A DNA stretch of 64,000 nt from Chloroflexota bacterium (GTDB lineage Bacteria > Chloroflexota > Limnocylindria > P2-11E), in NCBI GenBank assembly GCA_038040345.1, contig JBBPIQ010000001.1, positions 257,245-321,244 on the forward strand, written 5' to 3'. Of the stretch, positions 5,229 to 57,982 are shown piece after piece. Each line of letters starts with the position of its first letter. The stretch's first letter is position 1. Made by a program: the position numbers and the translations under genes. The notes beneath the pieces were generated by a model. It was not told the origin of the DNA and made no database searches. It was given only the letters and a program-made list of their open reading frames with translations.

Positions 5229-5737
5229 GCGGTCCTCCTCGCTGATCCATCGGCGATGCTCGCGATTTGTCTTAGGTGGGATCGCTCGTGATTGGCGAGC
5301 CACCGCGCGTATTCCAGCACCGTCCGTTCGCGTGGCGCTCCGGCGCCCGTCACCGTGGCACTACGTGACCAGCCGGCCTTTGGCAACGGTCGCAGGAGCG
5401 CTAACAGCTCGGCACGCTGCTTCGTAAATGCGCGGAACGAGGGCGCGAATTCCAGTTCGGGATAGTTCGTGCTCTTGATCCAGGTCGTGGGATTCATCGC
5501 TCGGATCGTCGGCCGGTCTTCGTCGATGATCGTCGCGATGTACTTGCCCCACATGTCGCCGCATGAACGGAGATGGGCAAGCACATCGTTGAGGGACCAC
5601 TCGCCGCGACTCGGTGAACGGTGCAATCGAGCTCGCGGCAGACCTTCGGTAAGCGCAGCGATAGCCTTCGGCTGGTCCGCGAGCTGGGTCAGGAGCTGGT
5701 CGATCGTGAGCGGTGTGTCGTACACGAGGACACGCAT
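5225..5737 (-). CDS. DinB family protein (paralog of 4080-4628)
   Basis: WSLNDVLAHLRSCGDMWGKYIATIIDEDRPT... aligns residue-for-residue with the 4080-4628 product. Start assumed at MRVLVYD. Confidence 0.7.
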   Translation of the reverse strand: MRVLVYDTPLTIDQLLTQLADQPKAIAALTEGLPRARLHRSPSRGEWSLNDVLAHLRSCGDMWGKYIATIIDEDRPTIRAMNPTTWIKSTNYPELEFAPSFRAFTKQRAELLALLRPLPKAGWSRSATVTGAGAPRERTVLEYARWLANHERSHLRQIASIADGSARRTA

Positions 5738-5798
5738 ATTGCATGACGACGACCGCCCTGATGCGCCGGGCCGAGAGCAGCGGAAAAATGCTTGCTGT

Positions 5799-5839
5799 CG
5801 CCCGGAGGGGATTCGAACCCCTGACCTCTTCCTTGAAAG
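5799..5839 (-). other. Orphan 3' half of tRNA-Glu (T-arm through anticodon loop): att-site-like direct repeat of the 3' end of the intact tRNA-Glu at 21124-21197
   Basis: A roughly 40-nt identical stretch gcccggaggggattcgaacccctgacctcttccttgaaag is shared with 21125-21165. Sequence 5' of the anticodon loop diverges completely. Confidence 0.75.
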
Positions 5840-5927
5840 CGATGGGGTCGAGAGAAGTGGCCTAGCGATTTGTTTACGCACCAACTGATACCGGTTCTGA
5901 GCGAAAATGCGCGTCAGAGAAGCGGCC
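5831..5927. repeat. 97-nt repeat copy A (conserved 36-nt and 27-nt termini, variable centre), abutting the tRNA-Glu fragment
   Basis: Same-length ungapped alignment with 9301-9397, about 64/97 identical, concentrated at both ends. Internal direct motif GTC(G/-)AGAGAAG at both ends. Confidence 0.6.
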
Positions 5928-5974
5928 TTGTGAAAACGATGCGGCGGGCAGCAGACCAGCCATTTCGTGCGGTG

Positions 5975-6595
5975 CTACACGCCGTCGACAGCCGGGCCGG
6001 GGCGAGCAGGCGCGCTCAGGCGATTCGACTGAAGAGCCGCGAGTATGTGCACGGCCGACGCGATGTCACTCGCGTCCTCGGACATGTGCGACCAGATGAT
6101 GGTGCCGTCGATATCGATGATCATCGCGCCGCCGAGCTGGGCGAAGTCACCGATCGTGCGGCCCTGAAACACGCCGTGTTTCGCGATGGCCATGACGCCC
6201 TTGGCGACGACGAGGGGCCCAAGCAGCTCGTCCATGGTTGCGACCTTCGCGCCTGCTGCCTTATAGGTCAGGCGCTCTGCGTCGGCGAGCACGGGCAGGT
6301 CGATCCCTTGGGTGCGGCGGAAATGCGCTGCGTGAGGCGGCGTGGCCTGGCCGATCAGGACCAGGCGCGCGCCTGCCTCCGCAAAGCTGGCGCGGTCACG
6401 GTGCAACTGCACCGCATGTGCACGGCAGAACGTTCAGCCGTAGTGGCGCAGCCAGACCAGCACCGCAGGGCGGTCGCGCCAGAGATCTCCAAGTCGCACC
6501 ACGCGTCCCTCGTGGTCTGGCAGCGTGATATCGACGAGCTCATCGGCACGCCGCGGTGGCGACGCGTGCTGACGTTCCGTCGCGGTGCCAAACAC
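5975..6595 (-). CDS. TlpA/AhpC-TSA (Prx-like) thiol:disulfide oxidoreductase; candidate selenoprotein with in-frame TGA (6434-6436) giving a UxxC motif (…VLVWLRHYG-U-TFCRAHA…)
   Basis: A single reading frame runs from GTG 6595 through TGA to the stop at 5975. The region around the TGA matches the TlpA-family FWASWCxPCR redox motif, with Sec in place of the first Cys. Downstream is a thioredoxin-fold region (DLPVLADAERL, IIDIDGTIIW). Hairpin 6397-6416. Confidence 0.6.
6397..6416 (-). promoter_or_regulatory. SECIS-like hairpin (mRNA UGCGGUGC-AGUU-GCACCGUG) 18-37 nt downstream of the in-frame UGA of the Prx-like gene
   Basis: 8-bp stem (with G-U pairs) and a GU-containing tetraloop, seen directly. 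Confidence 0.4.
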
Positions 6596-6605
6596 GATGC
6601 GACGC

Positions 6606-6998
6606 CTACCTCGCCGCGGTGGTCGCAGATTCGACCGGGCGCCCAGCTGCGACCCACGCCTTGAACCCGCCGTCGAGGTGAGCAACGTTCGTGTAGCCCA
6701 TGTCCGTGAGCGCGGCGGCCGCAAGCGCCGAGCGTCCCCCGGTCGCGCAGTGAAGGATGATGCGGCGCTCCGGCTCGAAGCCCTCCTGGTGGTACGGGCT
6801 CGTCGGATCGGCGCGGAACTCGAGCATGCCGCGTGGCACGTTGACCGAACCCGCGATGCGTCCCGACTCGGCGAGCTCAGCTGGTTCACGCAGATCGACG
6901 AGCAGCACGCCCGCAGCGCGCTCCTTGTCGACCCCAGCAACATCGAGGTTCTCGATCTTCGCCTTCGCCTCGGCGACCAACTCAACAGCCTTCTTCAT
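6606..6998 (-). CDS. Single-domain rhodanese (sulfurtransferase), Cys-containing active site HCATGGRS
   Basis: CxxGxR active-site loop. GGAG Shine-Dalgarno sequence 7 nt upstream of ATG 6998. Stop is 10 nt before the Prx-like start. Confidence 0.8.
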   Translation of the reverse strand: MKKAVELVAEAKAKIENLDVAGVDKERAAGVLLVDLREPAELAESGRIAGSVNVPRGMLEFRADPTSPYHQEGFEPERRIILHCATGGRSALAAAALTDMGYTNVAHLDGGFKAWVAAGRPVESATTAAR

Positions 6999-7073
6999 CG
7001 TCGTGCTCCTTTCGTTCCTGAGCGTGTGACGGACGGTAGTGACCGCCACCACGCCGGTCGTCAGGAGTTCGCC

Positions 7074-8648
7074 CTACAAATCGAGCGGCTCGAACGTGTC
7101 GAGGAGGCCGTGCTGCATCGCGAAAAGCGTCGCCGTGGACCGCGTCGACGCGCCGATCTTGCTGTAAATGCGCTCGATGTGGGTGCCCGCCGTCTTCGCA
7201 GAGATGCCGAGTGCCTGCGCCACCTGGCGGTTGGATGCACCGCGGGCAATCAGCGCCAGGACCTCGACCTCGCGAGGGGTCAGCCCGGCGGGTCCGCTTC
7301 GTCGCTTGCCCTGGCTTTGTCCCGCTGCCGCGAGGACGGCGTCGACACCGTCCACGTCGAAGCGCGCCGCACGCACGTCACGACGCAGTTCCGTCGCAGC
7401 CTGCTTCGGGGTCATCGCAGGTCGGTAGGAACGCGGCTCGATCATCGCGCGGTATGCGCACGCTGCGCCGAGTAGCCGACCCCCGACGGGAATCGCGGGC
7501 CGAGTGAGGGCGCGGTGATAACCCGAGCCGTCGCAGCGCTCATTGGTCAACGAGGCGATCGCGCCGAGCCGGGCAAGTACGGGTGGCCGCGACAGCACTC
7601 GCTCGGTGTAGTAGGCATGCATCCGCATGCGCTCCCATTCGGATCGCGAGAGCGGACCCGGCTTCTCGAGGATCGTTGCGGGGACACCGTGCAATCCGAT
7701 GTCGTGCAGCAGGCCCGCGCGCCGGAGTGCCACGACCTCAGCCTCGGGAAGCCCCACATAGGCTGCGGCTGTCGACACCAAGTCGGCGACCCCGCGCGAA
7801 TGACCGGCACGCGACGGCGAGCGTAGATCCGTGAAGTCGGCAACGGCCTCGAGCGCCACGTCGAACTCATCCTCGGAGAGGCGTTGCTGCAACGACGGCT
7901 CGTCTGCGATGAGCATCTGCCAGTCGGTGTCGATCACGGGATCACCGAGCACGTCATCCGCGACGGCGGCGAAGGCGGCAACGACCGCGGGATCGAACTG
8001 CGTTCCGCGCCGCTCGCGCGCGACAGTGACCGCAGCCCGCGTCCCCTCGACGCGCTGCACCACCTCCACGACATCGGCGAGCTGATACAGACGCATTGGC
8101 AGCGCGATCGCGTCGCCCGCAACGCCGAGCGGCACACCTTTGCCGTCCCACCGCGTGAAGAACTGGTTCAGCGGGTCGCGCACCTCAACGCCGAGCCCCA
8201 GCCGGTCGGCCATCGTTGCCGTGACGAGGCAGTGGGAGTGGATAACGGCTTCGATCGCACTCCGTCCGGCGGCCATGAGACTGGCGGCGACCCGAAGGCG
8301 TCGCAGAGATGGGCGGCCGGCTCCGGCGTGCCGGAGCATGAATCCGACGAGCGGCAGACCGGACTGGTCGAGCTCATAGCCGTCGTGCCGGTAGGCGATG
8401 TCGTCACCGAACCACGCGGACAGTTCAGGCGTGTCCGCGACGCAGCCGACCCACGCAAGAGTGGCGACATAGTAGAGCGCGCCGCGCTCGTCACGTTTGA
8501 TGCCGACGTGGTCCCCGAGACGAGCGGCAATGAGCCATGACCGCAGGACATGCTCCATCGGCTGACCGAGACCGAGGTCGACCGCCAGCGTGAACGCCGC
8601 GACGAGCTCTGCGAGCCGAAGGCCCGAATCGTCCGCAGCGCCCTTCAC
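7074..8648 (-). CDS. HD/HD-GYP-like domain protein with C-terminal LuxR-type HTH (transcriptional regulator)
   Basis: LLHDIGL HD motif, then C-terminal LTPREVEVLALIARGASNRQVAQALGISAKTAGTHIERIYSKIG. Confidence 0.7.
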   Translation of the reverse strand: MKGAADDSGLRLAELVAAFTLAVDLGLGQPMEHVLRSWLIAARLGDHVGIKRDERGALYYVATLAWVGCVADTPELSAWFGDDIAYRHDGYELDQSGLPLVGFMLRHAGAGRPSLRRLRVAASLMAAGRSAIEAVIHSHCLVTATMADRLGLGVEVRDPLNQFFTRWDGKGVPLGVAGDAIALPMRLYQLADVVEVVQRVEGTRAAVTVARERRGTQFDPAVVAAFAAVADDVLGDPVIDTDWQMLIADEPSLQQRLSEDEFDVALEAVADFTDLRSPSRAGHSRGVADLVSTAAAYVGLPEAEVVALRRAGLLHDIGLHGVPATILEKPGPLSRSEWERMRMHAYYTERVLSRPPVLARLGAIASLTNERCDGSGYHRALTRPAIPVGGRLLGAACAYRAMIEPRSYRPAMTPKQAATELRRDVRAARFDVDGVDAVLAAAGQSQGKRRSGPAGLTPREVEVLALIARGASNRQVAQALGISAKTAGTHIERIYSKIGASTRSTATLFAMQHGLLDTFEPLDL

Positions 8649-8675
8649 GTTCGTCAGCCTACTGGGCCGCCCGCC

Positions 8676-9221
8676 TTACGTTCGCCGGACCTCGGTCGTA
8701 TGCGCCACACGGTTGTCCATCGCCCAGATCGCGGGGCAACGCTCGTCCGCAAGTCGCTTCACCCGCGCGACCTCGTCCTCCGACGCGTCGGTCGCGACAT
8801 CGAGCTCGAACGCGAACGCATTGAGTGGGGGCACCTCGGCGACGCCGAGCGCGGGACGAAAGTCGACCTGGAGGCGAAGGCGTGCGCGCAGGCTCTTGAT
8901 CTTCATGCCGACCATCGCCGCCTGCATCGCATATGTCGACGCGTAGCAGGAGAGGGCACCCCAGAAGCAGTAGATGAGGGGGGACGGAGCGCGACCGTCT
9001 CCGCTCAGGAACGCAGGGAAGTCGGCCTCGAAAGTCGTCTCGCCCCTTGCGTACTTCACCGTTCCGCCGAACTGCGCCTTGGTCTCGTCGGTGCGCCAGT
9101 CGCCGACGAGATCCACACTCAACTGGGCCGCGCTTGGATCGGCCTTCGCCTTCTCCGCGGTCGCCCGCGCGTTGTCGACTCGCACGTTGTGCAGCGTCGC
9201 CATCGTCCCGTCCCTCATCAC
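8676..9221 (-). CDS. OsmC/Ohr family peroxiredoxin-like protein (Cys-containing)
   Basis: Conserved OsmC cysteines (LIYCFWGALSCY, ERCPA). Start uncertain (the alternative MATLHN start was not adopted). Confidence 0.75.
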   Translation of the reverse strand: MMRDGTMATLHNVRVDNARATAEKAKADPSAAQLSVDLVGDWRTDETKAQFGGTVKYARGETTFEADFPAFLSGDGRAPSPLIYCFWGALSCYASTYAMQAAMVGMKIKSLRARLRLQVDFRPALGVAEVPPLNAFAFELDVATDASEDEVARVKRLADERCPAIWAMDNRVAHTTEVRRT

Positions 9222-9300
9222 AATGATGTTCGCTCGCCCTCCGAGAGAGCAACGTGGCGGAGTCTAGGCGAGGTCGCTAGCAGCTCTTGATTCGCCGTTC

Positions 9301-9397
9301 CCTTGAAAGAGATGAGGTCGAGAGAAGCTGCCTAGCACGACTTCTGAGCACGACTCGGGCCGCTCATAACTCGAAAACACGCGTCAGAAAAGCGGCC
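9301..9397. repeat. 97-nt repeat copy B, preceded by a degenerate tRNA-Glu T-arm/anticodon remnant (gattcg…ccttgaaag)
   Basis: Alignment with 5831-5927. Lies between the OsmC start and the stop of the ArsM-like gene. Confidence 0.6.
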
Positions 9398-9441
9398 CAA
9401 GGAACGAAATGAAGGGGGGCGGCAGGCCGCCTTCGGTCAGC

Positions 9442-10230
9442 TCAAGCTGGTTTGCGCGCGTAAACGGTCACGCCGCGCGTCTCGAAGTCCTTGGCGTCAC
9501 TTTCGTGCTTGCTGCCGGCGAACACGTCGACCTCATTAGACATAACGATGTCCGTGAAGCCGGTCTGTTCGAGGAGCACGCGCCACTCTGCATCCAGCAG
9601 AGCCCCGGCAATTCAGCCGCTCCAGAGCGCGATGTCGTCCTTCGCATCCTGAGGAACTTCTTTATGCACGAGGATGTCTCCGATCTGGATCCGCCCGGTG
9701 GGCTTGAGGACACGGAGCATTTCGCCGAACACCGCGCGCTTATCGGGGCACAGGTTGACCACCCCGTTGCTGATGATGACGTCCGCGAAGCCGTCATCGA
9801 CGGGCAGCACTTCCGCGAAGCCTTCGCGGACGTCGACGTTGGAGAGTCCCATCTCGCGTGCGCCTTCTTGCGTCCTCTCCCGCATCTCCGCCGTCATATC
9901 GACGGCGACGACCCGACCGCTCGGCCCGACCTGCTGCGCGGCGATCAGGGTGTCAACGCCCGCGCCGCAGCCGACGTCGACCACGCGTTCGCCCGCGCTA
10001 AGATCGCCGAACAAGAAGGGGTTCCCCGTGCCGGCGAATGACGCGAGGTTTGTCGCCGGAACGCGGTCGATGAGTTCGCTGGGGTAGCCGAGCATTAGGG
10101 CCAAGGGTCGACCGGTGTGAAAGTGGAATCCGAGTTCGGGGTTGGTGGCGACTTCGCTGTACTTCTCGGAGATGAACCGACGAAGCTCATCGCGATCGAT
10201 CCGCGCCACTCCGATCTGTTGCGCAGTCAC
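9442..10230 (-). CDS. ArsM-like class I SAM-dependent methyltransferase; candidate selenoprotein with in-frame TGA (9613-9615) at the conserved catalytic Cys position (…DIALWSG-U-IAGALL…)
   Basis: SAM motif VVDVGCGAG. The conserved ArsM C-terminal domain (IAGALLDAEWRVLLEQTGFTDIV…GVTVYARKP) continues in frame for 56 codons after the TGA to the stop at 9442. Hairpin 9586-9602, exactly 11 nt after the UGA. Confidence 0.6.
9586..9602 (-). promoter_or_regulatory. SECIS-like 17-nt hairpin (mRNA CUCUGC-UGGAU-GCAGAG) starting 11 nt downstream of the in-frame UGA of the ArsM-like gene
   Basis: Perfect 6-bp stem (7 with a G-U pair) and a 5-nt loop. The spacing matches the canonical bacterial SECIS. 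Confidence 0.45.
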
Positions 10231-10316
10231 CCTAACGACCTCCGTTCGCGCTCGAATGAATGGCCCGGAGGATACTGCGCGTCTAGCGTTTTTCGATGAA
10301 CAGTGGGAGGAGTCTG

Positions 10317-10682
10317 ATGGCGAAACTACTGATCACGACCGTGGCTGGTCCCGATGATCCAACCCGCGCCAGCCTCGGTTTCCACATGGCCGTGAACGGC
10401 GCGGTCAAGAACGAGATCGATACGAGCATCGCGATGGCCGGCGATGCGATCGAGCTGCTCAAGCCCGGCGCGGCGGATCACGTCCGGGGCGTTGGCGTTC
10501 CGCCTCTAGTCGAGCTGCTTTCCGGCTGCGTCGCCGCCGGGGTCAAGATCTACGTCTGAAAGGGTTGCGCTGAGGCCCGTGGGGTCTCGCAGCCGGACCT
10601 CGCAGCGATCAAAGCCGAGTACATGACACCGCCGACCCACACGCGCATGGTGATGGAGGCTGACCGAAACATCAGCTTCTAG
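10317..10682 (+). CDS. DsrE/DsrF/YchN-like protein; candidate selenoprotein with in-frame TGA (10557-10559) giving a UxxC motif (…VKIYV-U-KGC-AEARGV…)
   Basis: GGGAGGAG Shine-Dalgarno sequence 4 nt upstream of ATG 10317 (an alternative ATG exists at 10296). The region around the TGA aligns with YchN VKLCKTCTDGRGI. The frame continues 41 codons to TAG 10680-10682. Hairpin 10571-10589. Confidence 0.6.
10571..10589 (+). promoter_or_regulatory. SECIS-like hairpin (UGAGGCCC-GUG-GGGUCUCG) starting 12 nt downstream of the in-frame UGA of the DsrE-like gene
   Basis: 7-8 bp stem with a G-U pair and a GUG loop. Confidence 0.4.
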
Positions 10683-10688
10683 CCGCGC

Positions 10689-11738
10689 CTACTTCTTCAG
10701 CTCGGTCGACAGCCCCTTGAAGATCGTGAGATCGATCGCCTTGAGCAAGTCGTCGGTGCTCGCTTTCAGAAGGCCGACGTCCGTGAGCAGCGGTGCGTAG
10801 AAGCGGACCGCCTTCTCGAGGTCGTACGTGCGCCAGTCGAGAGGCACCATGTTCGCCGCAACAGTTATGTTCGCGAGCGCCGCCGCGCCGCCAAAGAGTC
10901 CCTTATCCGCGGCGAGCTTCGCCGCATCGCTGCGATCGGCGGTGAGGGTGTCCGCGGTGCGATAGATCGCGCGCATCGCACGCTTCGCGGCGATCGGGTT
11001 CGCGCGATACCACGGCTCGCTCGCGATGATGAAGCAGCAGTTGGTGCTCTTCCAGGGCTCGTCCATAACCTGCGAGAAAATCACGTGTCCCTTATTCGCG
11101 GGGTTCGCCTTCAGCGCAGCGGCTGCCGTCGTGGCCACGTACATCACGTCGCTCTTGCCATCGAGGTAGAGCTTCAGCACGTCGGCGTCGGCCTGCACGA
11201 CGAAATTCACATCCTTCGGGTCGACTCCGGCCTGCTTGAGCGCCATCGCCATCCAGCTGTATGGCAGGTTGGTAAGAGCCTTGGAAGTTACGGAGATGGT
11301 GCGCCCCTTGAGATCCTTCAGCGAGGCAATGCCCGGCTGCGCCCAGATCTCATTGCATCCGGGGTGGAGCCCACCTAGCGCGACAACCTTCGGGCCGCTC
11401 TCGACCGAGTTGAAGACCGCCTGCGGGAATGCGTTGCCAATGTCGGCGTTACCTGCCGCGATCGCCGTGGTGGTGACCGCGTCAGTGAACTTCACGTCGG
11501 TGAAGCCTTCCTCGCGGAGATAGCGCTCGGCCCCAAAGATCGCGCTGTCGCATGCGCCAGCCGCAAGCCGGATCGAGGTCGTCTCCGGCGGCGCCAGCGT
11601 TGCCGTCGCAGTCGGGACCGGAGCCGTCGCCGTTGCGGCAGACGAGCCTGCGGGTGCGCACGAAGCGAGAAATGGTCCGGCGGTCAACGCGGCGGCGGCA
11701 CCCATGCCGCGGCGCAGCACCTCACGTCTCGTGACCAT
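10689..11738 (-). CDS. ABC transporter substrate-binding protein (NMT1/SsuA/TauA-like, NitT/TauT family) with Tat signal
   Basis: N-terminal RREVLRRGMGAAAALTAG twin-arginine motif. Periplasmic binding-protein fold signatures. Confidence 0.7.
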   Translation of the reverse strand: MVTRREVLRRGMGAAAALTAGPFLASCAPAGSSAATATAPVPTATATLAPPETTSIRLAAGACDSAIFGAERYLREEGFTDVKFTDAVTTTAIAAGNADIGNAFPQAVFNSVESGPKVVALGGLHPGCNEIWAQPGIASLKDLKGRTISVTSKALTNLPYSWMAMALKQAGVDPKDVNFVVQADADVLKLYLDGKSDVMYVATTAAAALKANPANKGHVIFSQVMDEPWKSTNCCFIIASEPWYRANPIAAKRAMRAIYRTADTLTADRSDAAKLAADKGLFGGAAALANITVAANMVPLDWRTYDLEKAVRFYAPLLTDVGLLKASTDDLLKAIDLTIFKGLSTELKK

Positions 11739-11930
11739 TGAAGATCCCCCCCTCCCGTCACCCGAGTCGAATCGAGCTGACGGCCGACCGGATACTAGGC
11801 GGGCCCCAGAGAAATAGCGATGGCTTGATCTCTGCGGCCATCGCAGTGCCTATCGGGCGAGCGGTCAGGCAGTCTTCCGCCCTGGAGCGCTCTCTTTCCC
11901 GATTCCGCGGGACGGATCGCGTCGCCCGCG

Positions 11931-13151
11931 TTAGCGCGCGGCGAGCACGAAGTAGGTGGTCAGCGGCCCACGGCCGCGAACATCGATCGCACCGCGCTCT
12001 TCGCAGACAAAGTCGTCCTTCACGAGCGCGTACGTCGTCTCGCTCACCTGAACGCGGCCGGCCATCCCCTGGGACTCCATGCGACTCGCCGTGTTCACGG
12101 TGTCGCTCCAGATGTCGTAAACGAACTTGTGCTTCCCGATGACGCCCGCGACCAGCGGTCCGGAGTTCAGGCCGATGCGCACCGCGAGGCTGCGCCTCTC
12201 AGGTGTGCGGTAGCGCTCGATGAAGTCCCGCACATCCAGCGCCATGCGGACCGCCGCGAGCGCATGATCCGCGCGTGAAAGCGGCACGCCGCTCACACCC
12301 ATCCAGTTGTCCCCGATGGTGCGGATCTTCTCGACGCCGTGGCGCTGGGCGAGGTCATCGATATGAGAGAAGACGTCGTTGAGGACGCCGATGAGCGCGT
12401 CCGGCGTGAGCTCTAAGGCGAGGGCGGTCGAGCCAACGAGGTCGGCGAAGAGTACGGTCGCATGTGCGTGCGAGTCGGCGATGCGACGTTCACCGGCCTT
12501 GAGGCGGTCCGCGATCTGCTTCGGAAGGATGTTGAGCAGCAGACCTTCCGAACGCTCCTGCTCCGCGGCCAGTAGGTGCATGGCTTGGTCGCGCTGGCGG
12601 TTGAAGACGGCCAGGAGCGTGACCGCGAGCGTGCTGATCGCGGCGATGTTGAGAACGAAGAAGGTCGTACGCAACCACTCCGGGAGTGCGTTCGTCCCGC
12701 GCAGGCTGCCCTCGAGAACACCGGCGGTCGCGACGAGGGCAAGAAATGCCAGCAGCCAGAGTGCCGCGCGTGGTGCGCCGAAGACGAGTGCGCCGATCGG
12801 TGCGAGCAGCGACCAGAGCACGACCCCGCTGGACGGCACGAACCCGCCCAGGGTGAGCTGCAAGGCGAAGGGCAGCGCTAGGATGAGCACGAGCTCGATC
12901 CATCGCAGGAGCGCGAACCAGCCCGTGATTAGGAAGGTCGCCAGCCCCAGCAAGCTGACGATGACATACGCGAACGGGATGGCAGCCGACAGCCGCTCGC
13001 CATAGATGAAGTAGATCGCCGACCACACCAGGCCCGGCGGGATAAACAGCAGCGCTGAGAGCACGAGCAAGGTCTTCTGCGTGCGGACCTCGCTCTCGTC
13101 GCCGGGCGGGCTGACCCGACCCGCGATCTGGTCGACGAACGGAAGGAGCAC
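11931..13151 (-). CDS. Membrane-anchored class III adenylate/guanylate cyclase
   Basis: Six hydrophobic N-terminal helices. The C-terminal cyclase domain has FADLVGST…GDNWMGVSGVP…NTASRMES motifs. Confidence 0.8.
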   Translation of the reverse strand: MLLPFVDQIAGRVSPPGDESEVRTQKTLLVLSALLFIPPGLVWSAIYFIYGERLSAAIPFAYVIVSLLGLATFLITGWFALLRWIELVLILALPFALQLTLGGFVPSSGVVLWSLLAPIGALVFGAPRAALWLLAFLALVATAGVLEGSLRGTNALPEWLRTTFFVLNIAAISTLAVTLLAVFNRQRDQAMHLLAAEQERSEGLLLNILPKQIADRLKAGERRIADSHAHATVLFADLVGSTALALELTPDALIGVLNDVFSHIDDLAQRHGVEKIRTIGDNWMGVSGVPLSRADHALAAVRMALDVRDFIERYRTPERRSLAVRIGLNSGPLVAGVIGKHKFVYDIWSDTVNTASRMESQGMAGRVQVSETTYALVKDDFVCEERGAIDVRGRGPLTTYFVLAAR

Positions 13152-13219
13152 CTCAGCCCTGCATCAGGCGGAGGGGACGATGGCGCTTACATCCGGATTC
13201 ATCGCGCGCGGGTCCGTCG

Positions 13220-13717
13220 TCACTCCACGAGGACGGCCGCGCGCATACGCTGATCAGCGTGCCCGGGCACGCTGCAGTACGCGTCGTAGCGTCCTGGGGG
13301 CAGCCCGCGAAGGCCAACTGTCTTGGTTTCGCCGGGGTTCGCCACGATGTGGATCCCGAGCGCCGGCACAGTGAGGTCGTGCATTACGCCGTTTGCTGCG
13401 GGGTTGCTTAGCGTCAGATTCACTTCCGTCGCGTGCGGGACGCGGATCTCGCTGGGCGTGAAGCTGAAGTTCAGGGCCACTACCCGCACCTCGGTTGCGC
13501 CGGGAATGGCGGACGCGGCGGGGCCGGCGTTGCCGAAGCCCATCATCCCGGGACCCATGGGCGCTTGGCCCATCATGCCGGGGCCTATCTGCCAAGACCC
13601 GTTCGGGAATGCGCTCGCACCACCGGCGGCTTGGCCGATCGCCAATGCGGCGATGCCGAGGAGCAGAAGGATGCCCGACACCACTGCCACCGAGCCGGCG
13701 ACCCGCTGGGCGGTCAT
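13220..13717 (-). CDS. Membrane-anchored cupredoxin (type-1 copper protein, plastocyanin/azurin-like)
   Basis: C-terminal YCSVPGHADQRM copper ligand set (H…C…H…M). N-terminal TM helix. Gly/Met/Pro-rich linker. Confidence 0.65.
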   Translation of the reverse strand: MTAQRVAGSVAVVSGILLLLGIAALAIGQAAGGASAFPNGSWQIGPGMMGQAPMGPGMMGFGNAGPAASAIPGATEVRVVALNFSFTPSEIRVPHATEVNLTLSNPAANGVMHDLTVPALGIHIVANPGETKTVGLRGLPPGRYDAYCSVPGHADQRMRAAVLVE

Positions 13718-13950
13718 CGCTTCGTCTCTTCGATCGCGGCGCGCCGAGTGCGGAACTCCTCCGTGTCGATCTCGCCACGCGCCAGTCGCTCTTCGAGGAT
13801 CCGAAGGGCACCGCTATCCCCTCCGCGGGCATGCTGTTGTCGCGAGAGCGTCAGGACTGCCCAGACGATTCCCGCGATCACGAAGACCCAAAAGAGCAGC
13901 ATCAAGAGTCCGCCGAAACCGAACCAATAGCCGTTCATATATGGCATCAC
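13714..13950 (-). CDS. SHOCT domain membrane protein
   Basis: N-terminal TM helix plus C-terminal LEERLARGEIDTEEF SHOCT motif. ATGA overlap with the cupredoxin gene. Confidence 0.65.
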   Translation of the reverse strand: MMPYMNGYWFGFGGLLMLLFWVFVIAGIVWAVLTLSRQQHARGGDSGALRILEERLARGEIDTEEFRTRRAAIEETKR

Positions 13951-14112
13951 ATGAAGACCTCCCTCAGAGACGGTACGCCGGATGCGAGCGTAGGAGATGC
14001 GTCCGTCGGACTCACGACCGGCGGGTCAAAGGTCCTCTCAACACGACGAGATAGAGCGACGAAGAGGGCGCTAGGTCTCGCGACGGACACTCCACAGATC
14101 ACGCTCTGTGCG

Positions 14113-15456
14113 TCACCAAGGCTCCGGGGCGAGCGCTCTCGATTCTCCAGGCGCACGCGTTTCGGGAAGTCGACCGAGCGTCACGAGACCCGAAGCCAGT
14201 GTCAGGGCGGCCACGACCCCGACGGCCCAATTCAGACCGAGCCGGTCCGCGACGATTCCGGCGACGAGCGCTCCGATCACGTAACCCGCGTCCCGCCAGA
14301 AGCGATACACGCCGGTCGCGGTCGCTCGCCATTGTGGGTGTGCGACATCGGAGACGACCGCGAGCAGCGTGGGATAGACCAAGGCCGTGCCCAGACCGAG
14401 AGCGGCCATGCCGACGAGCGCGAGCCAGAAATCGGGCGCGATCGCGAGCACACCCAGTGCGGCCGCCTGTACGAACATTCCACCGACGATCAGCCACCGC
14501 CTGCCAAATGCATCGGACATGGCTCCGGTCGCAAGTTGCGCCACGCCCCAAACGGCGGGGTACGCACCGGCCAGAACGCCGACCTGTTGGAGATCACGGC
14601 CCGAAGCGAGGAAGAGCAACGGCAGCAGACCCCACGCGACACCGTCGTTGAGGTTATTCACCAGACCGGCTTGGCTCGCAGCAGAGAGCGCACGGTCACG
14701 CCAGGTGGTCCGCGCGAAGATCTCGCCCAGCGATGGAAGGGGCTCCGACGGACGGTCCGTCGCTTCTGCGCGCGCGTGCTCGACGGACTCTCGGGTTGCG
14801 AGCGAAAGCCCCAGACCAAGGATGGCGAACGCAAGGCCGAGGAGAAAGGGCTGCGGTCGTAGGGCGGTGGCGGCCGCGAGCTCGCTCCCGGCGAAGGCGG
14901 CGAGACCGACTGCGAGGTAGCCAGCGAACTCGTTGATCCCAAGGGCCAGCCCGCGGCGGGCAGGCCCCACGAGATCAACCTTCATGATGATGGTCATCGA
15001 CCAGCAGAGGCCCTGATTCACGCCCAGGAAGAGATTCGCGGCGACGACCCAGCCCCAGTTGGGCGCGAGGATGATTAGCACGGGGACGGGTAGGCCGAAG
15101 AGCCAGCCTGCGATGAGCAGCCGCCTTCGACCCACCCGGTCCGCGAGTGCGCCGGCGGCCAGGTTGGTCACCGCCTTGGTTGCGCCGAAGCTGGCGATGA
15201 AGGTAAGGAGCGCGGCCCACGAGGCGACCCCGACTCCTGCTCGCCGAGGACCGGCAAGATCGCCCGCTCGAGCCCGACCATCGCTCCGACGAAGGCATTG
15301 ACGGCGACGAGCAACGCGAACTGCCTCCAGTTCGCGCGCAGACCCAGTCGGATCCCGACCACTGACGGGACTACGAGAGCGAACGCTCCAGCACTGCGAT
15401 TTGCCACACCCACCCGCGCCGCTGCATGACCGGACGCAAACCGGCGGACTCGGCAA
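14113..15456 (-). CDS. MFS transporter with an apparent single-base frameshift near 15228-15238; TM1 lies in the other frame (ORF 15168-15521)
   Basis: The 15168-15521 frame gives …FALLVAVNAFVGAMVGLERAILPVLGEQ. The long frame resumes at …VASWAALLTFIASFGATKAVTNLAAGALADRVGRRR, the MFS D/GRR motif. This is a pseudogene or a sequencing indel. Confidence 0.6.
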   Translation of the reverse strand: MPSPPVCVRSCSGAGGCGKSQCWSVRSRSPVSGRDPTGSARELEAVRVARRRQCLRRSDGRARAGDLAGPRRAGVGVASWAALLTFIASFGATKAVTNLAAGALADRVGRRRLLIAGWLFGLPVPVLIILAPNWGWVVAANLFLGVNQGLCWSMTIIMKVDLVGPARRGLALGINEFAGYLAVGLAAFAGSELAAATALRPQPFLLGLAFAILGLGLSLATRESVEHARAEATDRPSEPLPSLGEIFARTTWRDRALSAASQAGLVNNLNDGVAWGLLPLLFLASGRDLQQVGVLAGAYPAVWGVAQLATGAMSDAFGRRWLIVGGMFVQAAALGVLAIAPDFWLALVGMAALGLGTALVYPTLLAVVSDVAHPQWRATATGVYRFWRDAGYVIGALVAGIVADRLGLNWAVGVVAALTLASGLVTLGRLPETRAPGESRALAPEPW

Positions 15457-16021
15457 TCGCGAGGATCCGGCGCGGGTCGTGAATGTAGAGGCGGAAGGCG
15501 CAGCCGCGGAGCCGGAACCAAATGCGGCTAAGCAATTGCCCGACCCGCCACCACCAGCGGTCGGCAGGAAAGCTCAACGCCAGGACTCTTGCCGCGTGGT
15601 TGGCCGAGACGCCGACCAACGCTTCCATGTCTGGATAGCAGCAGATCACCCGATGAAGCAGCACGATGTCCGCGCGCGGTACCTGGTCACCATCCTGGGC
15701 GAAATCAAGGACGGTGCGATCGACACGGGCGGTGAGGCCGACGGTTTCCAACAGGTCACGGGCTGCCTGCTCGTACGTATCCACGAGCTCCACATTGGTC
15801 GCGCGCGTCGCCCCCGCACGGAGCAGCTCGATCTCGAGGGCGCCGATACCGCCGCCGACTTCCAACACGCTCGCCCCGGCGACACCTCGATTCACGATCT
15901 CATCGACCATCCGCTGACCGGTGGGATCCAATCCTTTCTTCAGATAGGTTTGCGCGTCGCTCCTCGCGTTCTTCTCGTCGAAGAGCTCCGCGTAACCATC
16001 CCTACCGCAGCACGCTGGCAT
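15371..16021 (-). CDS. Class I SAM-dependent methyltransferase with N-terminal Cys pair (MPACCGRDGY…)
   Basis: VLEVGGGIG SAM motif. N-terminal CC dyad. Sits within the metal ATPase operon. Confidence 0.7.
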   Translation of the reverse strand: MPACCGRDGYAELFDEKNARSDAQTYLKKGLDPTGQRMVDEIVNRGVAGASVLEVGGGIGALEIELLRAGATRATNVELVDTYEQAARDLLETVGLTARVDRTVLDFAQDGDQVPRADIVLLHRVICCYPDMEALVGVSANHAARVLALSFPADRWWWRVGQLLSRIWFRLRGCAFRLYIHDPRRILAIAESAGLRPVMQRRGWVWQIAVLERSLS

Positions 16022-16041
16022 CGCTCAACCCAAGCGCGTCG

Positions 16042-16335
16042 CTACGCCATTTCCGATCGGATGATCTCGCCGTCGTGCCACTCCGGATCCGCCGCGAGCA
16101 GTGCGCGCATCTTCTTGTAGCGCTCGTCCTGCTTGGGATCCCGCGCGTTCGCGACGTAGCTCTCCTTGTCCTTGAAGGCGACGGCCATGTAGATCTCGTT
16201 CGGGTCGCGATCCATGCGATACACGACCGTGCTGACAAACCCCGAGATCTTGAGCTGGTCGTACTGAGCCATGTCTTCCTTGAGCTTCGCCTCCATTCCT
16301 GGCTTAAGTCGCATCCGTGCAACCGTCCCGTACAT
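16042..16335 (-). CDS. ABM (antibiotic biosynthesis monooxygenase-like) dimeric alpha+beta barrel protein
   Basis: 97 aa. ABM-like pattern (…FVSTVVYRMDRDPNEIYMAVAFKDKESY…). Confidence 0.55.
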   Translation of the reverse strand: MYGTVARMRLKPGMEAKLKEDMAQYDQLKISGFVSTVVYRMDRDPNEIYMAVAFKDKESYVANARDPKQDERYKKMRALLAADPEWHDGEIIRSEMA

Positions 16336-16546
16336 CCAAGACTCCTTCCCGCGTTTGCTCGCATCCTATGCGCGCGCTGCGGTTGGTCCACGGCAGTCCC
16401 GCCGCAGCCGATGTGCGGTGTGGCGCCGAGCGCCGTACGCTCACGATCCGCAAGACGCAATTCGGGACGTGATCTGCGGATTCGCGGCTCTTTCTCGGTT
16501 CGGCGCGTCGACTCGCCCACCCGCGGGAGCAAGAAGGGGATTTCTC

Positions 16547-18958
16547 TTAGGTCGTCTGCGCGAGGCTGCGTTCGGATCGACGCAAGAGGAGCGCGTTGGT
16601 CACAACGGTGATGGAGCTAGCGCTCATAGCTAAGGCGCCGAACTCCGGGCGGAGCAGAAGCCCGAACGCGGGATATAGGACGCCGGCCGCCACCGGGATC
16701 GCGACCAGGTTGTACGCCGCGGCCCAGAACAGGTTCTGCTTCATCTTCCGGACGGTCGCCTTCGAAAGGCGGATCGCGGCGAGCACGTCGCGGGGATCCG
16801 AGCGCATGAGCACAATGTCCGCGGTCTCGATCGCCACATCAGTGCCCGCGCCGATCGCGATGCCAAGATCCGCCTGCGCGAGCGCCGGGGCGTCGTTGAT
16901 TCCGTCGCCCACCATCGCCACGAACTTCCCTTCCGAGTGCAGGCGCTTGACTTCCTCCGCCTTGTGCTCAGGCAACACCTCGGCGAGTACCCGTTCGATG
17001 CCGAGCTCGCCGGCGACTGCCTCTGCGGTCTGCCGGTTATCGCCGGTGAGCATGGCGACCTCGATCCCGATCGCCCGGAGTCCCGCGACGGCGGCACGGG
17101 CGGTGGGCCGCGGCGTGTCTCGCACGGCGACGAGGCCGGCTACTTCGCCGTCCACGGCGACGATCGTGATGGTCTTGCCGGCGCGCAGAAGGTCGTCGAG
17201 CGCCGCGCTGATCGCATCGAGGCGGATGCCGCTTTCCTCCATCAGCCGCCTGGTCCCGACCACCACGAGACGACCATCGACGCGGGCACGCACGCCACGT
17301 CCGCCCAGGGCCTCGAACTCGTCGATCCGAGTGGGCACCTCGATGCCGCGCCGGGTCGCTTCATCGAGGAGCGCCTTCGAGACCGGATGGCCCGAGCGCG
17401 ACTCCGCTCCCGCCTCCAGTCGGAGCAGCTCACGGTCGTCGAGCGGCGGCAGGGCGATTACGTCGGTGACGCGCGGCTTTCCTTCGGTGAGGGTGCCGGT
17501 CTTGTCGAAGACGACGACGTGGATCTTCGACGCAAGCTCGAGGCTCGTCGCCTGTTTGAAGAGGATGCCGTGCTTCGCGCCGATGTCCGTGGCGACCATG
17601 ATCGCGGTCGGCGTCGCGAGGCCGAGGGCGTCGGGACACGCGATGACGATGGCGGTGACCGCGAGCGTGAGCGCGAAGAGCACGGGTTCGCGCGCGATGA
17701 GCGTCCAGTACAGGAACGTGAGCACGCCGGAGGCGACCGCGACGATCACGAGGTAGTGCGCCGCGCGGTCGGCGAGGCGCTGCGCCGGCGGCTTCGAGGC
17801 CTGCGCGCGCTCGACCATCGCCGCGATGCGCGCGAGCGTCGTGTCGGAGCCGACCTGCGTCGCGCGGGTGCGGATCGACCCGCTCTGGTTGACGGTCCCG
17901 GCCACGACCTTCGCGCCCGCTTCCTTCTCGACCGGGATCGACTCTCCCGTCACCATCGACTCATCGATCGAGGTGTGCCCGTCGATCACCACGCCGTCGA
18001 CCGGCACGCGCTCGCCCGGGCGGAGCACGACGATGTCGCCCACGCGCACCTCAGACACCGGGACGCGGACGACCTTCCCGTCCCGCTCGACGTTGGCTTC
18101 TGCGGGCGCGAGCTCGAGGAGCTTGCGCACGGCATCCGATGAGCCCCGTCGGGCGCGCATCTCCATCCAGTGGCCGAAGAGGAGGAAGGTCGCGAGCATC
18201 ACCGCCGCTTCGTAGAAGGTCTCGCCGCCGACGGTGAACGTGAGCCCGACGCTGAAGAGGTAGCTGACGAGGATGCCGAGCGAGACGAGCACGCTCATGT
18301 TCAGCACGCCGGAGCGAATGGAGCGCCACGCACCGACGTGGAAGACGCTCGAGGCCCAGAGCGCGACCGGCGTGCTGAAGGCCAGGAGGATCCAGTTGCG
18401 ATCGACCGGCGCCGGGAGCTCACGGCCGCCCAGCAGGAGGGTGCCCAGCGGCGAGTAGGCGATCACCGGGAGCGAGAGCACGAGCGCGATGAAGAAGCGC
18501 CGGCGCATGTCGTCTTCCATCGCCGCGGCCATGCGCGGGTCGGACATGTCGTGGCCCATCGCCTCATGGCCGCCATGCGCGGCCGTCTTCGCGGCGGCGT
18601 GGTGCATCGCCTCGTGGGAGCTGACCTCCGCCTCCGGCAACGGCACCGGGTTGCGGAAGTTGCACTCCTCGATCTGCTTCCGAAGCGTCGCCACGTCGGT
18701 CACTCCTGTGTGAACGGTTACGTCCGCGATCTTCCGGGTCAGATCAACGTGCGCATCAACGACATGCGGGAGCTGCTTGATCGCGCTCGCGAGATCGTCC
18801 TGGCAGCAGGGGCAGAAGACGTGATCGAGCGGGAACTCCAACGTCTCCGTCGCGGGCACCGCCGGTGTGCGCTGTGCGGCCGTCACCGCAACGAAACGAG
18901 GGACTGCTGCACTAGGTCCAACCGAAGGCGCGGAAGGCTCCATACGTGGCGAGCGCAA
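16547..18958 (-). CDS. Heavy-metal-translocating P1B-type ATPase with atypical motifs: N-terminal CPCC metal-binding motif, His-rich stretch and a TM6 CPD motif in place of CPC
   Basis: DKTGTLT, GDGINDAP and TGES motifs. TM motif IACPDALGLATP (codons tgt ccc gac were read directly). N-terminal …DHVFCPCCQDDLASAIKQLPHVVDAHVDL and MHHAAAKTAAHGGHEAMGHDM. Confidence 0.85.
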   Translation of the reverse strand: MRSPRMEPSAPSVGPSAAVPRFVAVTAAQRTPAVPATETLEFPLDHVFCPCCQDDLASAIKQLPHVVDAHVDLTRKIADVTVHTGVTDVATLRKQIEECNFRNPVPLPEAEVSSHEAMHHAAAKTAAHGGHEAMGHDMSDPRMAAAMEDDMRRRFFIALVLSLPVIAYSPLGTLLLGGRELPAPVDRNWILLAFSTPVALWASSVFHVGAWRSIRSGVLNMSVLVSLGILVSYLFSVGLTFTVGGETFYEAAVMLATFLLFGHWMEMRARRGSSDAVRKLLELAPAEANVERDGKVVRVPVSEVRVGDIVVLRPGERVPVDGVVIDGHTSIDESMVTGESIPVEKEAGAKVVAGTVNQSGSIRTRATQVGSDTTLARIAAMVERAQASKPPAQRLADRAAHYLVIVAVASGVLTFLYWTLIAREPVLFALTLAVTAIVIACPDALGLATPTAIMVATDIGAKHGILFKQATSLELASKIHVVVFDKTGTLTEGKPRVTDVIALPPLDDRELLRLEAGAESRSGHPVSKALLDEATRRGIEVPTRIDEFEALGGRGVRARVDGRLVVVGTRRLMEESGIRLDAISAALDDLLRAGKTITIVAVDGEVAGLVAVRDTPRPTARAAVAGLRAIGIEVAMLTGDNRQTAEAVAGELGIERVLAEVLPEHKAEEVKRLHSEGKFVAMVGDGINDAPALAQADLGIAIGAGTDVAIETADIVLMRSDPRDVLAAIRLSKATVRKMKQNLFWAAAYNLVAIPVAAGVLYPAFGLLLRPEFGALAMSASSITVVTNALLLRRSERSLAQTT

Positions 18959-19079
18959 CGAGCGCGATCCAGCAGAACCAATACAACGCCGTCATCCACC
19001 ACGCGTTGCGCGTGCCGAGCTGCGCTTCGACGGCGTGTTCCTTGCCGGTGCCCACGCGGTTGTTATCGGGTACTTCGGC

Positions 19080-19302
19080 TCACGAATCGGAGAGCGTCGA
19101 CCGCAACTGCTCGAATTGTTCCTTCGTGATCTCCCCGCGGGCCAAACGACGCGCCGCGATCGCCACCGCGTTCTCAGTCTCGCGAGCGTTCGTACTGTAG
19201 CAACACGGCAAGCCCGACCAGCACGACCACGATCAGGAGAAGGGTTGGGAGCCACATCCACCCCGCCATCCAGCTGCTCATCGTCGATCCCCAGTCCATC
19301 AT
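19080..19302 (-). pseudogene. SHOCT domain membrane protein with an apparent -1/+1 frameshift (TM part and SHOCT motif in different frames)
   Basis: Frame A: MMDWGSTMSSWMAGWMWLPTLLLIVVVLVGLAVLLQYERSRD then stop. The adjacent frame continues …AVAIAARRLARGEITKEQFEQLRSTLSDS then stop. GAGGAG Shine-Dalgarno sequence before the ATG. Paralog of 13714-13950. Confidence 0.5.
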
Positions 19303-19732
19303 CGCGAGTCTCCTCTGTATTCATTCGTCGAACATATGCTGCATTCACGGATCGCCGACCGACAGGGCCGTCCGACCCGCCAAATACGTCCGAAGTGACC
19401 CATTTCGCCGGGCGGCACCCTCGACCTGTGAAACCACGTCGACGCAGCCGTCTCGTCGCTTCTCGGACCTGTCGCCACACACCCGCGCTCTGCCATGACC
19501 AGAGTTTGAGCCCCCGAACCAAACGGGCCCCGTCTCTGCGTGCCACGAGATCGGAAGAAAACTGTGGCGTCTTTTCGCAACGCCCTGCGCAAAGGAACGG
19601 AAACCTACACGACAGCCTCGTGTAGCCCGGAGGGGGGTCAAGCGCGCGGAAGTGATAACAGTTCAGCTCGTGGGGGACGCGCGCGGCTGGCTTCGATTGG
19701 CGAGCTGAGGTGCAAGTCCCGTCCAAGCACGG

Positions 19733-20284
19733 GTGCCCGATGACCGGGTCAGCCGCTGCCTGCACATTGACCTCGAAGGCTTCGTCAAAGGGCACAGATT
19801 CTCGTACCGCGCCCACATCGAGGTGTCCGGCGACGAGTCGCTCGACGAGACCGTGAATGACCTCATTGTCGAATTCCGCCAGAACGAGTCTTGGCCGCTC
19901 GCCAACCAGGTCTGGCAGCAGATGACCGCAGCCGAAGACCGGGCGCTCAATCAGATGTTCCGTAATGACGTCATGTCGGCCTACCTGATGAAGCGGGTCC
20001 GGGGCGAGTTGATTGACGAATCATTCGCCGGGCACCCTTGGAAATATGACGACGAGCGAATCGCGGAGCGAACGCCATGCTTAGCCTCTTCGGCGGCCTC
20101 GTTGCCTCGTCGGCTGCGTGACTCCGGTTCCGCAGCGTCGAGCGCCGGAGAGACGGGACACTATTTGAACGGCCGATCCGAATACGGATCGACGGTTCTT
20201 GAGCTCCTCCGAGGGTCGCAGACCCTAGAGCCCCCGATCTTGGGCGTGTTTAGCTGCGCCGACCCGAGGTCGCGTCGCGCATGA
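19733..20284 (+). CDS. Hypothetical protein
   Basis: ORF with reasonable codon usage in its first ~110 codons. No recognisable domain. Confidence 0.3.
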   Translation: MPDDRVSRCLHIDLEGFVKGHRFSYRAHIEVSGDESLDETVNDLIVEFRQNESWPLANQVWQQMTAAEDRALNQMFRNDVMSAYLMKRVRGELIDESFAGHPWKYDDERIAERTPCLASSAASLPRRLRDSGSAASSAGETGHYLNGRSEYGSTVLELLRGSQTLEPPILGVFSCADPRSRRA

Positions 20285-20909
20285 TGTGTTCGGGGTCGAC
20301 CGTGGACGTTGCGTACTCCGGGCGCCCAGCAGGCCGATAGGTCTGGATGGTTATGCCCCGGGAAGTGGTCCGCGAGTTGACCAGGTCGAGCGCCATGTCC
20401 GGACCGGAATCGGGGAACAGCCGTGTGCCCTGGCCGACGACGACGGGAAAGGTGATCAGGTTGAGCTGGTCGACCAGGTCGTTGGCGAGCAGCCATCGGA
20501 CGAGGACACCGCTGCCGGGCACCAGCAGTTCGCCGTCTTGATGCGTCTTTAGATCACGGACGGCCGCGGCCACGTCGCCGGTCAGGACAGTCGTGCCCGC
20601 CCACTTCGGGTTGGTGAGGCTGGTCGATGCCACGTACTTGGGCCGGCTGTTCAGCGCAACGCCGATCGGGTGCTTGCGCAGGTCGGTCATGGCTCCCCAG
20701 GAGCCGGCGAAGATCTCGTACGTCCGCCGGCCGAACAGGAACGCGGCCGCGCCGCCGTAGATCTGGTTGATATAGTCCCCGGTTTCGGTGTCGTTAAGCG
20801 GTATGACCCATCCGCCGCGCTCGAAGCCGCCGCGGCGGTCTTCGTCCCGGCCGCCCAACCCCTGCATCACGCCGTCCACCGTGACGTTGGTCGTGGTCGT
20901 CAACCTCAT
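20250..20909 (-). CDS. RibD C-terminal domain / dihydrofolate reductase family protein
   Basis: MRLTTTTNVTVDGVMQG…FLFGRRTYE…LLVPGSGVLVRWLL pattern of the DHFR-like family. Confidence 0.75.
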   Translation of the reverse strand: MRLTTTTNVTVDGVMQGLGGRDEDRRGGFERGGWVIPLNDTETGDYINQIYGGAAAFLFGRRTYEIFAGSWGAMTDLRKHPIGVALNSRPKYVASTSLTNPKWAGTTVLTGDVAAAVRDLKTHQDGELLVPGSGVLVRWLLANDLVDQLNLITFPVVVGQGTRLFPDSGPDMALDLVNSRTTSRGITIQTYRPAGRPEYATSTVDPEHIMRDATSGRRS

Positions 20910-21123
20910 GTCGTGTCACCTCCTCGAACTACGGCCGCGGACCCCTTCTGGATCCGCGCTACTTGCGACAGACAAACATACTTTGCGGAGATCCGAGCGG
21001 ACCACACAACTGACGGGCTGAAGGTGGAGTTCAGGGCGCGAGCCGCTTGGGAGCCATACATCGAAGCGGTCCTGGCGACGCAAGGGGAGGGCCCCAAAGA
21101 TCTCACGCCTGTTATCACATCGG

Positions 21124-21197
21124 TAGCCCGGAGGGGATTCGAACCCCTGACCTCTTCCTTGAAAGGGAAGCGCCCTGGACCACTAGGCGACCGGGCC
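21124..21197 (-). tRNA. tRNA-Glu (anticodon TTC)
   Basis: Manual fold: acceptor GGCCCGG/CCGGGCT, D-arm GCCT…GGGC, anticodon stem CTTCC/GGAAG with loop CTTTCAA, T-arm AGGGG-TTCGAAT-CCCCT, discriminator A. Confidence 0.85.
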
Positions 21198-57966: not shown

Positions 57967-57982
57967 CCGCACAATTCACTAG

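Follow-up and report, generated by a model that had tools for sequence, protein, structure and literature searches.

A probable decayed, composite remnant of integrative elements at a tRNA-Glu gene in a Candidatus Limnocylindria genome

The window analyzed here is a 64-kb stretch of DNA from a member of the Chloroflexota class Candidatus (Ca.) Limnocylindria. On its minus strand lie an intact gene for tRNA-Glu(UUC) and, in the same orientation, a displaced copy of the 3' half of that gene, which is fused to one of two copies of a repeated arm. An earlier note, made from the letters of the sequence alone, had read the roughly 15 kb of DNA between the tRNA and its half copy as a tRNA-integrated island or islands. 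The features on which that reading turns are the following.

21122-21197, minus strand: intact tRNA-Glu(UUC), the attachment target (ARAGORN); its 3' part, 21123-21168, is the core identity block
5797-5842, minus strand: core of site A, which repeats the tRNA-Glu 3' half and is exact over 5800-5839; acceptor strand GGGCGAC versus GGGCTAC, one substitution
5840-5962, minus strand: P arm copy A, fused to the core; GGCCNCTTCTCT motifs at 5851-5862 and 5916-5927, 65 bp apart
9301-9432, minus strand: P arm copy C; motifs at 9321-9332 and 9386-9397, 65 bp apart; ends in CTTTCAAGG (9301-9309), followed by non-tRNA DNA

Two exact copies of the 40-mer GCCCGGAGGGGATTCGAACCCCTGACCTCTTCCTTGAAAG are present, both on one strand (5800-5839 and 21126-21165), and none appeared in 100 dinucleotide-preserving shuffles of the window, even at 3 mismatches. 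When extended, the repeat covers 46 nt with 96% identity (5797-5842 versus 21123-21168) and spans the anticodon loop, the 3' anticodon stem, the variable loop, the T arm and most of the 3' acceptor strand. Rfam RF00005 recovers the tRNA at 21124-21197 with 68.6 bits. On its tRNA-5' side, the site A copy bears no relation to the tRNA 5' half, and neither ARAGORN nor Rfam gave a match at 5797-5960. The tRNA-Glu gene, its same-orientation copy and the divergence of the DNA beside the copy from the tRNA 5' half were all described in the earlier note and are confirmed by ARAGORN, Rfam, the repeat search and sequence comparison, with the coordinates of the tRNA and copy corrected by 1-2 nt. The window holds a second tRNA gene, tRNA-Pro(UGG), at 57893-57968 on the plus strand. 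Logan contigs L053, L054, L065 and L066 (SRR28961250-52), apparently from the same strain, have ends that fall inside the 40-nt repeat, and one same-strain Logan contig is 15,346 bp long, which is the repeat-to-repeat distance. The 40-nt repeat systematically breaks short-read assemblies at the tRNA-Glu locus.

Read on the tRNA-sense strand, arm A runs from 5962 down to 5840 and precedes the half copy, while arm C runs from 9432 down to 9301. The arm repeat aligns 5831-5960 with 9301-9430; arm repeats had been seen before and given as 97 nt, a length that our alignment raises to about 130 nt. Beyond both arms, the window has one other match to GGCCNCTTCTCT at 1 mismatch, on the opposite strand. 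Arm A shares 82% identity over 163 nt with the locus L004 (loci and contigs from other genomes and metagenomes carry L numbers). Scanning metagenomes with the arm-core junction pattern gave 31 soil contigs; viral contigs scanned with the arm pattern gave no match. The arm with its tRNA half recurs in related Chloroflexota (Ca. Limnocylindria), at no fewer than 30 loci from soil metagenomes and metagenome-assembled genomes (MAGs). Conservation among 36 distinct arm copies at other loci begins at GGCCTGCTGCCCGCC and ends at the tRNA 3' end, with a tRNA 5' half at none of them. The displaced half is therefore not part of a longer tRNA-Glu paralogue, as its 5' side is a conserved recombination arm.

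It is hardly credible that site A is no attachment (att) site at all, being instead what is left of a duplicated tRNA-Glu gene or, with its arm, a regulatory element or structured RNA. In favor of such readings, duplication and decay are known for tRNA genes, different genomes conserve the arm, and copy C folds better than shuffles (z = -2.7, more stable). However, copy A folds no better than shuffles (z = +1.3), the RNAalifold consensus of 29 arm copies reaches -1.6 kcal/mol with 0 covarying pairs, Rfam has no match to the arms, and none of the 36 copies brings a tRNA 5' half with it. Integrase genes are physically linked to the arm as well, as are further copies of its motif on the integrase side. 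A structured RNA was rejected for the arm itself, since single-sequence folds disagree and the alignment fold lacks covariation. The arms were likewise considered as shared 5' untranslated regions of paralogous plus-strand genes; this was discarded because the open reading frames (ORFs) 5939-6661 and 9409-10038 are unrelated and the real genes lie on the minus strand.

In related genomes, intact elements with these arms (L030, L029, L048, L041) have the order tRNA-Glu, three close motif copies, an integrase on the opposite strand, and then the P arm with its tRNA half. The integrase is separated from the P arm and tRNA half by 3-5 kb in L029 and L030, and in several loci the elements measure 3-6 kb overall. 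The integrases are tyrosine recombinases (PF00589; E=2e-24 in L030 and 4e-24 in L029, with homologues in L048 and L041) that share 55-86% mutual identity. They are Xer-like, their best NCBIfam matches being XerC, XerD and XerA, far below the cut-offs of those models. An excisionase-like MerR/HTH_17-DUF433(-PIN) ORF is present in L029 and L030, and a Replic_Relax protein in the L029 element. The att site of the intact elements is composed of a P arm of about 130 nt with two GGCCNCTTCTCT 65 bp apart, a tRNA-identical core and a P' arm with three motifs. The core exactly reproduces the tRNA from CTTTCAA in the anticodon loop onward to its 3' end, and therefore integration would rebuild the tRNA. 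The P' arm lies directly 3' of the tRNA and overlaps the integrase 3' end, such that the triple motif falls within the C-terminal coding region (...EKRPSEKGPS...). This arrangement of arm, core and integrase is an attP/attL/attR system with arm-type sites, in which the GGCCNCTTCTCT motifs are candidate arm-type sites for integrase binding and TAGGCCGCTTCTCT is the presumed binding sequence of the L030/L029-type integrase. In all four intact elements, the integrase tail EKRPSEKGPS or EKRPSEMRPS is encoded by the three P' motif copies; the end of the protein and its presumed own binding sites are one DNA stretch.

Several intact elements occupy the same chromosomal tRNA-Glu as in the window, with upstream genes shared at 73-91% amino acid identity. 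A decay series is seen at seven loci (L004, L027, L028, L032, L035, L044, L050), where tblastn finds a C-terminal integrase stump beside the triple motif, and tandem junctions occur in L048, L024, L041 and L060. In L030, a second full tRNA 3' half (5743-5900) stands about 30 nt after the tRNA-Glu and before the P' arm, and looks like the scar of an earlier, almost wholly deleted element. Pfam found no integrase in the inserts of L002, L003 and L004; the C-terminal stump of L004 was visible only to tblastn with the family integrases.

A scan of species-representative genomes with the neighboring DUF2461 protein identified Chloroflexota / Ca. Limnocylindria MAGs at 71-86% amino acid identity. 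The order DUF2461, g21229, tRNA-Glu is kept in L001-L005, and the tRNA likewise follows these genes in L028, L030, L035 and L048. The locus L002 is an empty site, where the flank with a BNR-repeat gene comes within 28 nt of the tRNA and neither arm nor motif is present. Starting 28 nt past the tRNA, its DNA shares 89% identity with the stretch behind the att remnant of L003. Inserts of 2.1 and 3.6 kb sit at the tRNA 3' end in L003 and L004, respectively, and each is closed by an arm and tRNA half (partly deleted in L003) before the BNR flank resumes. The same flank follows the tRNA-half copy in L028, L043, L047, L048 and L050. Insertions at exactly the tRNA-Glu 3' end occur in L003, L004, L028, L029, L030 and L048, several with a tyrosine integrase and the same arms. 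The empty tRNA-Glu site that the earlier note proposed to look for is thus at hand in L002, the other relatives being differently occupied, and none of them has the identical gene order without the tRNA fragment; the related genomes do not share that order.

On the far side of site A, the chromosome resumes with one gene.

5225-5737, minus strand: DinB_2 gene, the first conserved chromosomal gene past site A (distal flank); 78% protein identity to the L002 orthologue

This gene starts about 60 bp beyond the site A copy. In L002, the DinB_2 and Glyoxalase_6 orthologues are 7.3 kb from the tRNA-Glu, behind a BNR-to-AlkZ block that the window lacks. Synteny between the window and L002 is lost precisely at the tRNA 3' end and regained at DinB_2. 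Divergent DinB_2 paralogues, at 4044-4559 (plus strand) and 5225-5737 (minus strand), flank Glyoxalase_6 just outside the segment, and both match the DinB_2 of L002, at 53-56% and 68-78% amino acid identity in different alignments.

Together, the empty and occupied sites, the arms and the linked integrases of relatives support the tRNA-integrated reading of the earlier note. We put at roughly 80% the probability that small integrative elements of Limnocylindria integrated site-specifically into the 3' half of tRNA-Glu(UUC) and that the segment is their decayed, composite remnant. Integration would have crossed over in the anticodon loop and rebuilt the tRNA, and the integrase and P' arm would have been lost in a later step. 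The window retains the distal junction at 5797-5962 (P arm plus displaced tRNA half, equivalent to attR) and the second P arm at 9301-9432, whereas attL is reduced to the tRNA core, its P' arm gone. What does not stand is a single island, as the segment comprises at least three pieces of different history.

One of these pieces occupies the center of the segment.

9470-16524, minus strand: cargo block, 91-94% identical to and collinear with L060 9498-16775

By Pfam, it encodes ABM, a methyltransferase, an MFS transporter, SHOCT, a cupredoxin, an adenylate cyclase, an NMT1-type binding protein, an 80-residue ORF and a 205-residue methyltransferase. In L060, a diverged P arm, a tRNA half, the P' triple motif and an integrase fragment immediately precede the cargo block. 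The MFS transporter gene (about 14113-15341, minus strand) changes frame at about 15228-15231 relative to the 409-residue L060 orthologue, and is either a pseudogene or an assembly error. It accounts for one of two frameshifted genes previously placed inside the segment; the second was not identified.

The distal piece lies between the two P arms.

5981-9317, minus strand: apparently captured chromosomal block, 93.2% identity over 3341 nt to L055 9335-12667 (Ca. Limnocylindria GCA_035651155.1)
8676-9221, minus strand: OsmC (Pfam)
7074-8648, minus strand: HD-GYP/LuxR regulator with HD_5 and LuxR/GerE (Pfam)
6606-7052, minus strand: rhodanese (Pfam)
5975-about 6595, minus strand: Prx-like AhpC-TSA_2 gene (Pfam), with an in-frame TGA at 6434-6436

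In L055, the corresponding DNA is located between a sugar ABC transporter and valyl-tRNA synthetase (ValRS), with no arms and no tRNA. At the left joint in the window, the arm, ending ...CCTCATCTCTTTCAAGG, meets the terminator tail GGGCCTCTTCTTCTTTCGATG of L055, and the crossover core has a likeness at the native locus (CTTTCAA in the arm versus CTTTCGA in L055). The right joint, 5980/5981, is 3 nt before the stop codon of the Prx-like gene, with no recognizable site. A MAFFT alignment had suggested that site C continues into a decayed tRNA 3' half (9270-9300, past CTTTCAAGG). However, the DNA at this joint is the native osmC upstream region of L055, and therefore copy C is not a decayed tRNA half. 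The sequence comparison indicates that copy C is a P arm joined at its crossover sequence to captured chromosomal DNA, and that the block from OsmC to the Prx-like gene was captured between two P arm copies. The Sec (selenoprotein-candidate) cluster that the earlier note had listed as island content is indeed within the segment; by comparison with its native locus in L055, it would be chromosomal DNA caught between the arms.

The in-frame TGA of the Prx-like gene occupies the first position of a redox motif (...RHYG-TGA-TFCR..., UxxC; G-U-T-F-C). Coding-like sequence extends upstream of the TGA, and a stable hairpin starts at it (-29.5 kcal/mol over 70 nt); it is plausible that the gene encodes a selenoprotein. 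Gene callers skip this gene in related contigs and call antisense ORFs instead. Full-length homologues of the HD-GYP/LuxR regulator, 70-75% identical, are annotated in Actinomycetota (Kribbella) and other MAGs, and one in a Gemmatimonas MAG reaches 83%. Such unusually high conservation across phyla suggests frequent horizontal transfer. The MAG contig L058 (GCA_041643075.1) has an arm with its tRNA half, and also a degenerate tRNA half that ends in the GGGCGACAG variant seen at site A (3666-3836, 6581-6621). Both are located upstream of a DDE_3 transposase and of a cluster with a cyclase, the HD-GYP/LuxR regulator and rhodanese. Here the regulator/rhodanese cluster is again associated with att remnants, in a different arrangement.

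Joints of a P arm to non-tRNA DNA, at CTTTCAA or a few bases past it, also occur in L022, L026, L036 and L039 and at the first arms of L042 and of the L004-type loci. Three of these cases (the window, L042 and the L004-type loci) have another complete arm and tRNA half downstream. For the window, the 3.3-kb capture may have begun with integration at a secondary site that resembles the target, followed by aberrant excision and re-insertion, or it may have taken an equivalent path of accretion plus deletion. The broader idea that the P arm and anticodon-loop crossover site form a recurrent gene-capture platform is speculative and, in our judgment, doubtful.

The third piece adjoins the tRNA.

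16525-21121, minus strand: tRNA-proximal mosaic with a P1B-type ATPase, two unannotated ORFs and a RibD_C reductase (Pfam)
16547-18958, minus strand: P1B-type ATPase (Pfam)
20250-20909, minus strand: RibD_C reductase (Pfam)

The mosaic sits where intact elements have their P' arm and integrase, and this 4.6-kb stretch probably replaced the integrase end. A remnant of the ATPase 3' end adjoins ABM in L061. The RibD_C module (20198-20983, minus strand) shares 96% nucleotide identity with L063 and L064, where its neighbors are wholly different, and its protein is 80-85% identical at the amino acid level to Arthrobacter proteins; by this pattern, the gene behaves as a single-gene mosaic module. 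As both the regulator and RibD_C have homologues of 70-85% identity in other phyla, they are transfer-prone genes. The window has two P-type ATPase paralogues, 16547-18958 and 42482-44815 (both minus strand), which are 26 kb apart and share stretches of 76-91% nucleotide identity.

Several observations weigh against a tRNA-integrated origin for the whole segment. The flank past site A differs from the BNR flank of seven relatives, and therefore at least one further deletion, replacement or rearrangement must be assumed. No P' motif is found near 21121, and the DNA there does not resemble the relatives' P' arms. Immediately past the intact tRNA, 10 nt show a weak likeness to the native flank type of L029 and L031 rather than to a P' arm; as a native flank of that type they were set aside, the match being too short to count. 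The L060 contig stops before the distal end of the block, and thus the cargo block is never seen with both arms in one genome. Pfam found no recombinase, integrase or excisionase among the main ORFs of the segment, and no recombination function is demonstrable for the window copy. Binding of the arm motifs by the integrase and the capture pathway are both steps that we infer. Finally, the comparison of composition that the earlier note had advised gave a flat GC content between segment and flanks and a mild tetranucleotide deviation, r=0.946 versus 0.966 +/- 0.008 for same-size control segments that overlap one another. Composition close to that of the flanks fits exchange within the lineage or long residence.

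An alternative is that the segment is mostly native chromosome in a recombination-prone region, with only the two short arm/core pieces derived from mobile elements and displaced by later rearrangements, and the enclosed genes never borne by an element. In its favor are the chromosomal setting of block 5981-9317 in L055, the occurrence of the RibD_C module by itself among unrelated neighbors, the near-flank composition, a distal flank unlike that of the relatives and the lack of a P' arm or integrase beside the tRNA. However, block 9470-16524 stands directly behind an att junction in an independent genome, L060, in the same orientation. Loci with shared upstream genes that extend past the tRNA (L002-L005, L028, L030, L035, L048) have none of the enclosed genes downstream of it, and the breaks in synteny with L002 coincide exactly with the tRNA 3' end and site A. 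A native origin for most of the segment is thus unlikely.

The absence of an integrase, reported by the earlier note, is borne out by Pfam on the main ORFs and by tblastn of four integrases of the cognate family against the whole 64-kb window, which returned nothing below E=0.1. A satellite island, excised by a family integrase encoded elsewhere that acts on the tRNA core and site A, would be compatible with cores identical over 40 nt and with the well-kept distal P arm (82-85% identity to other genomes). Mobilization in cis or in trans is known for elements that have att sites at both ends but no integrase (PMC5704250). Nonetheless, the tRNA-side junction has none of the three P' motifs that adjoin the tRNA in all intact or stump-bearing relatives, one gene in the interior has a frameshift and no integrase lies within 64 kb. 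The only contigs recovered by exact-protein look-ups with RibD_C and DinB_2 are short-read ones of the same strain, which stop within the 40-nt repeat and give no sign of an empty site or a circle. We therefore consider continued mobility very unlikely. The bare core at the tRNA side makes canonical excision unlikely, the segment is probably immobile and fixed, and its loss would occur only through rare homologous recombination between the 40-bp repeats. Of the earlier description as degraded or satellite-type, the first term is upheld; the second is improbable with the tRNA-proximal arm missing.

The locus provides a worked example of integration, decay and gene capture in Ca. Limnocylindria, an abundant uncultured class of soil Chloroflexota; a full-text literature search for 'Limnocylindria' with 'integrase' returned no paper. 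With the target (tRNA-Glu, anticodon-loop crossover), the arm motif and the integrase family defined, islands at this locus become automatically recognizable in MAGs. The remnant explains the position of the redox and selenoprotein-candidate cluster and of the metal-transport genes, warns that these are accessory, strain-variable content, and explains why short-read assemblies of this lineage break at the tRNA-Glu locus. If the joints between arms and non-tRNA DNA were made by the integrase at secondary sites, the element family would shuttle chromosomal cassettes among Limnocylindria genomes in a manner akin to specialized transduction or to integrons. The cassette here would be the redox and selenoprotein-candidate cluster, with a regulator 70-75% identical across phyla.

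Among known systems, the closest counterparts are the tRNA-targeting islands of tyrosine integrases, which include lambda- and P4-type elements, whose attP has arm-type sites, and the actinomycete elements pSAM2 and SLP1. Like these, the Limnocylindria family integrates into the 3' part of a tRNA gene, carries a copy that rebuilds it, and shows the tRNA 3' half again at the far end as a direct repeat. In its intact members, the integrase adjoins the tRNA and short motifs are repeated in both arms. The small intact relatives also resemble actinomycete and other tRNA-integrating elements in their gene content, with an integrase, an excisionase-like MerR/HTH_17 ORF and, in L029, Replic_Relax. Unlike such islands, the window copy is without its integrase and integrase-side arm; unlike the named elements, the family has Xer-like integrases and its host belongs to an uncultured Chloroflexota class.

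For the captured block, the parallel is specialized transduction, in which lambda captures gal or bio after integration at a secondary site. As with gal and bio, neighboring chromosomal genes are attached to one arm and the joint resembles the crossover core. In contrast to lambda, no phage genes are present, the 5980/5981 joint lacks a site and the pathway is deduced from its end points only.

A further comparison is with cis-mobilizable elements (CIMEs), which have lost their integration and transfer genes and kept both attL and attR (PMC5704250). CIMEs and the tandem accretion of remnants of integrative and conjugative or integrative and mobilizable elements (ICEs, IMEs) have been described for ICESt1/CIME of Streptococcus thermophilus (PMC5704250). 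Similarly, the window lacks integrase and transfer genes and has several att-type sites in direct orientation at one tRNA, relatives display a decay series and tandem arrays (L048, L024, L041), and foreign DNA lies between att copies. It departs from the CIME definition in that its tRNA-side site is a bare core, attL not having been retained. It also differs from CIME accretion in that its internal site is no full att site: there, a P arm runs into chromosomal DNA that is not tRNA. In kind, the segment is an ordinary genomic island remnant of the known tRNA-targeting type, here in Ca. Limnocylindria.

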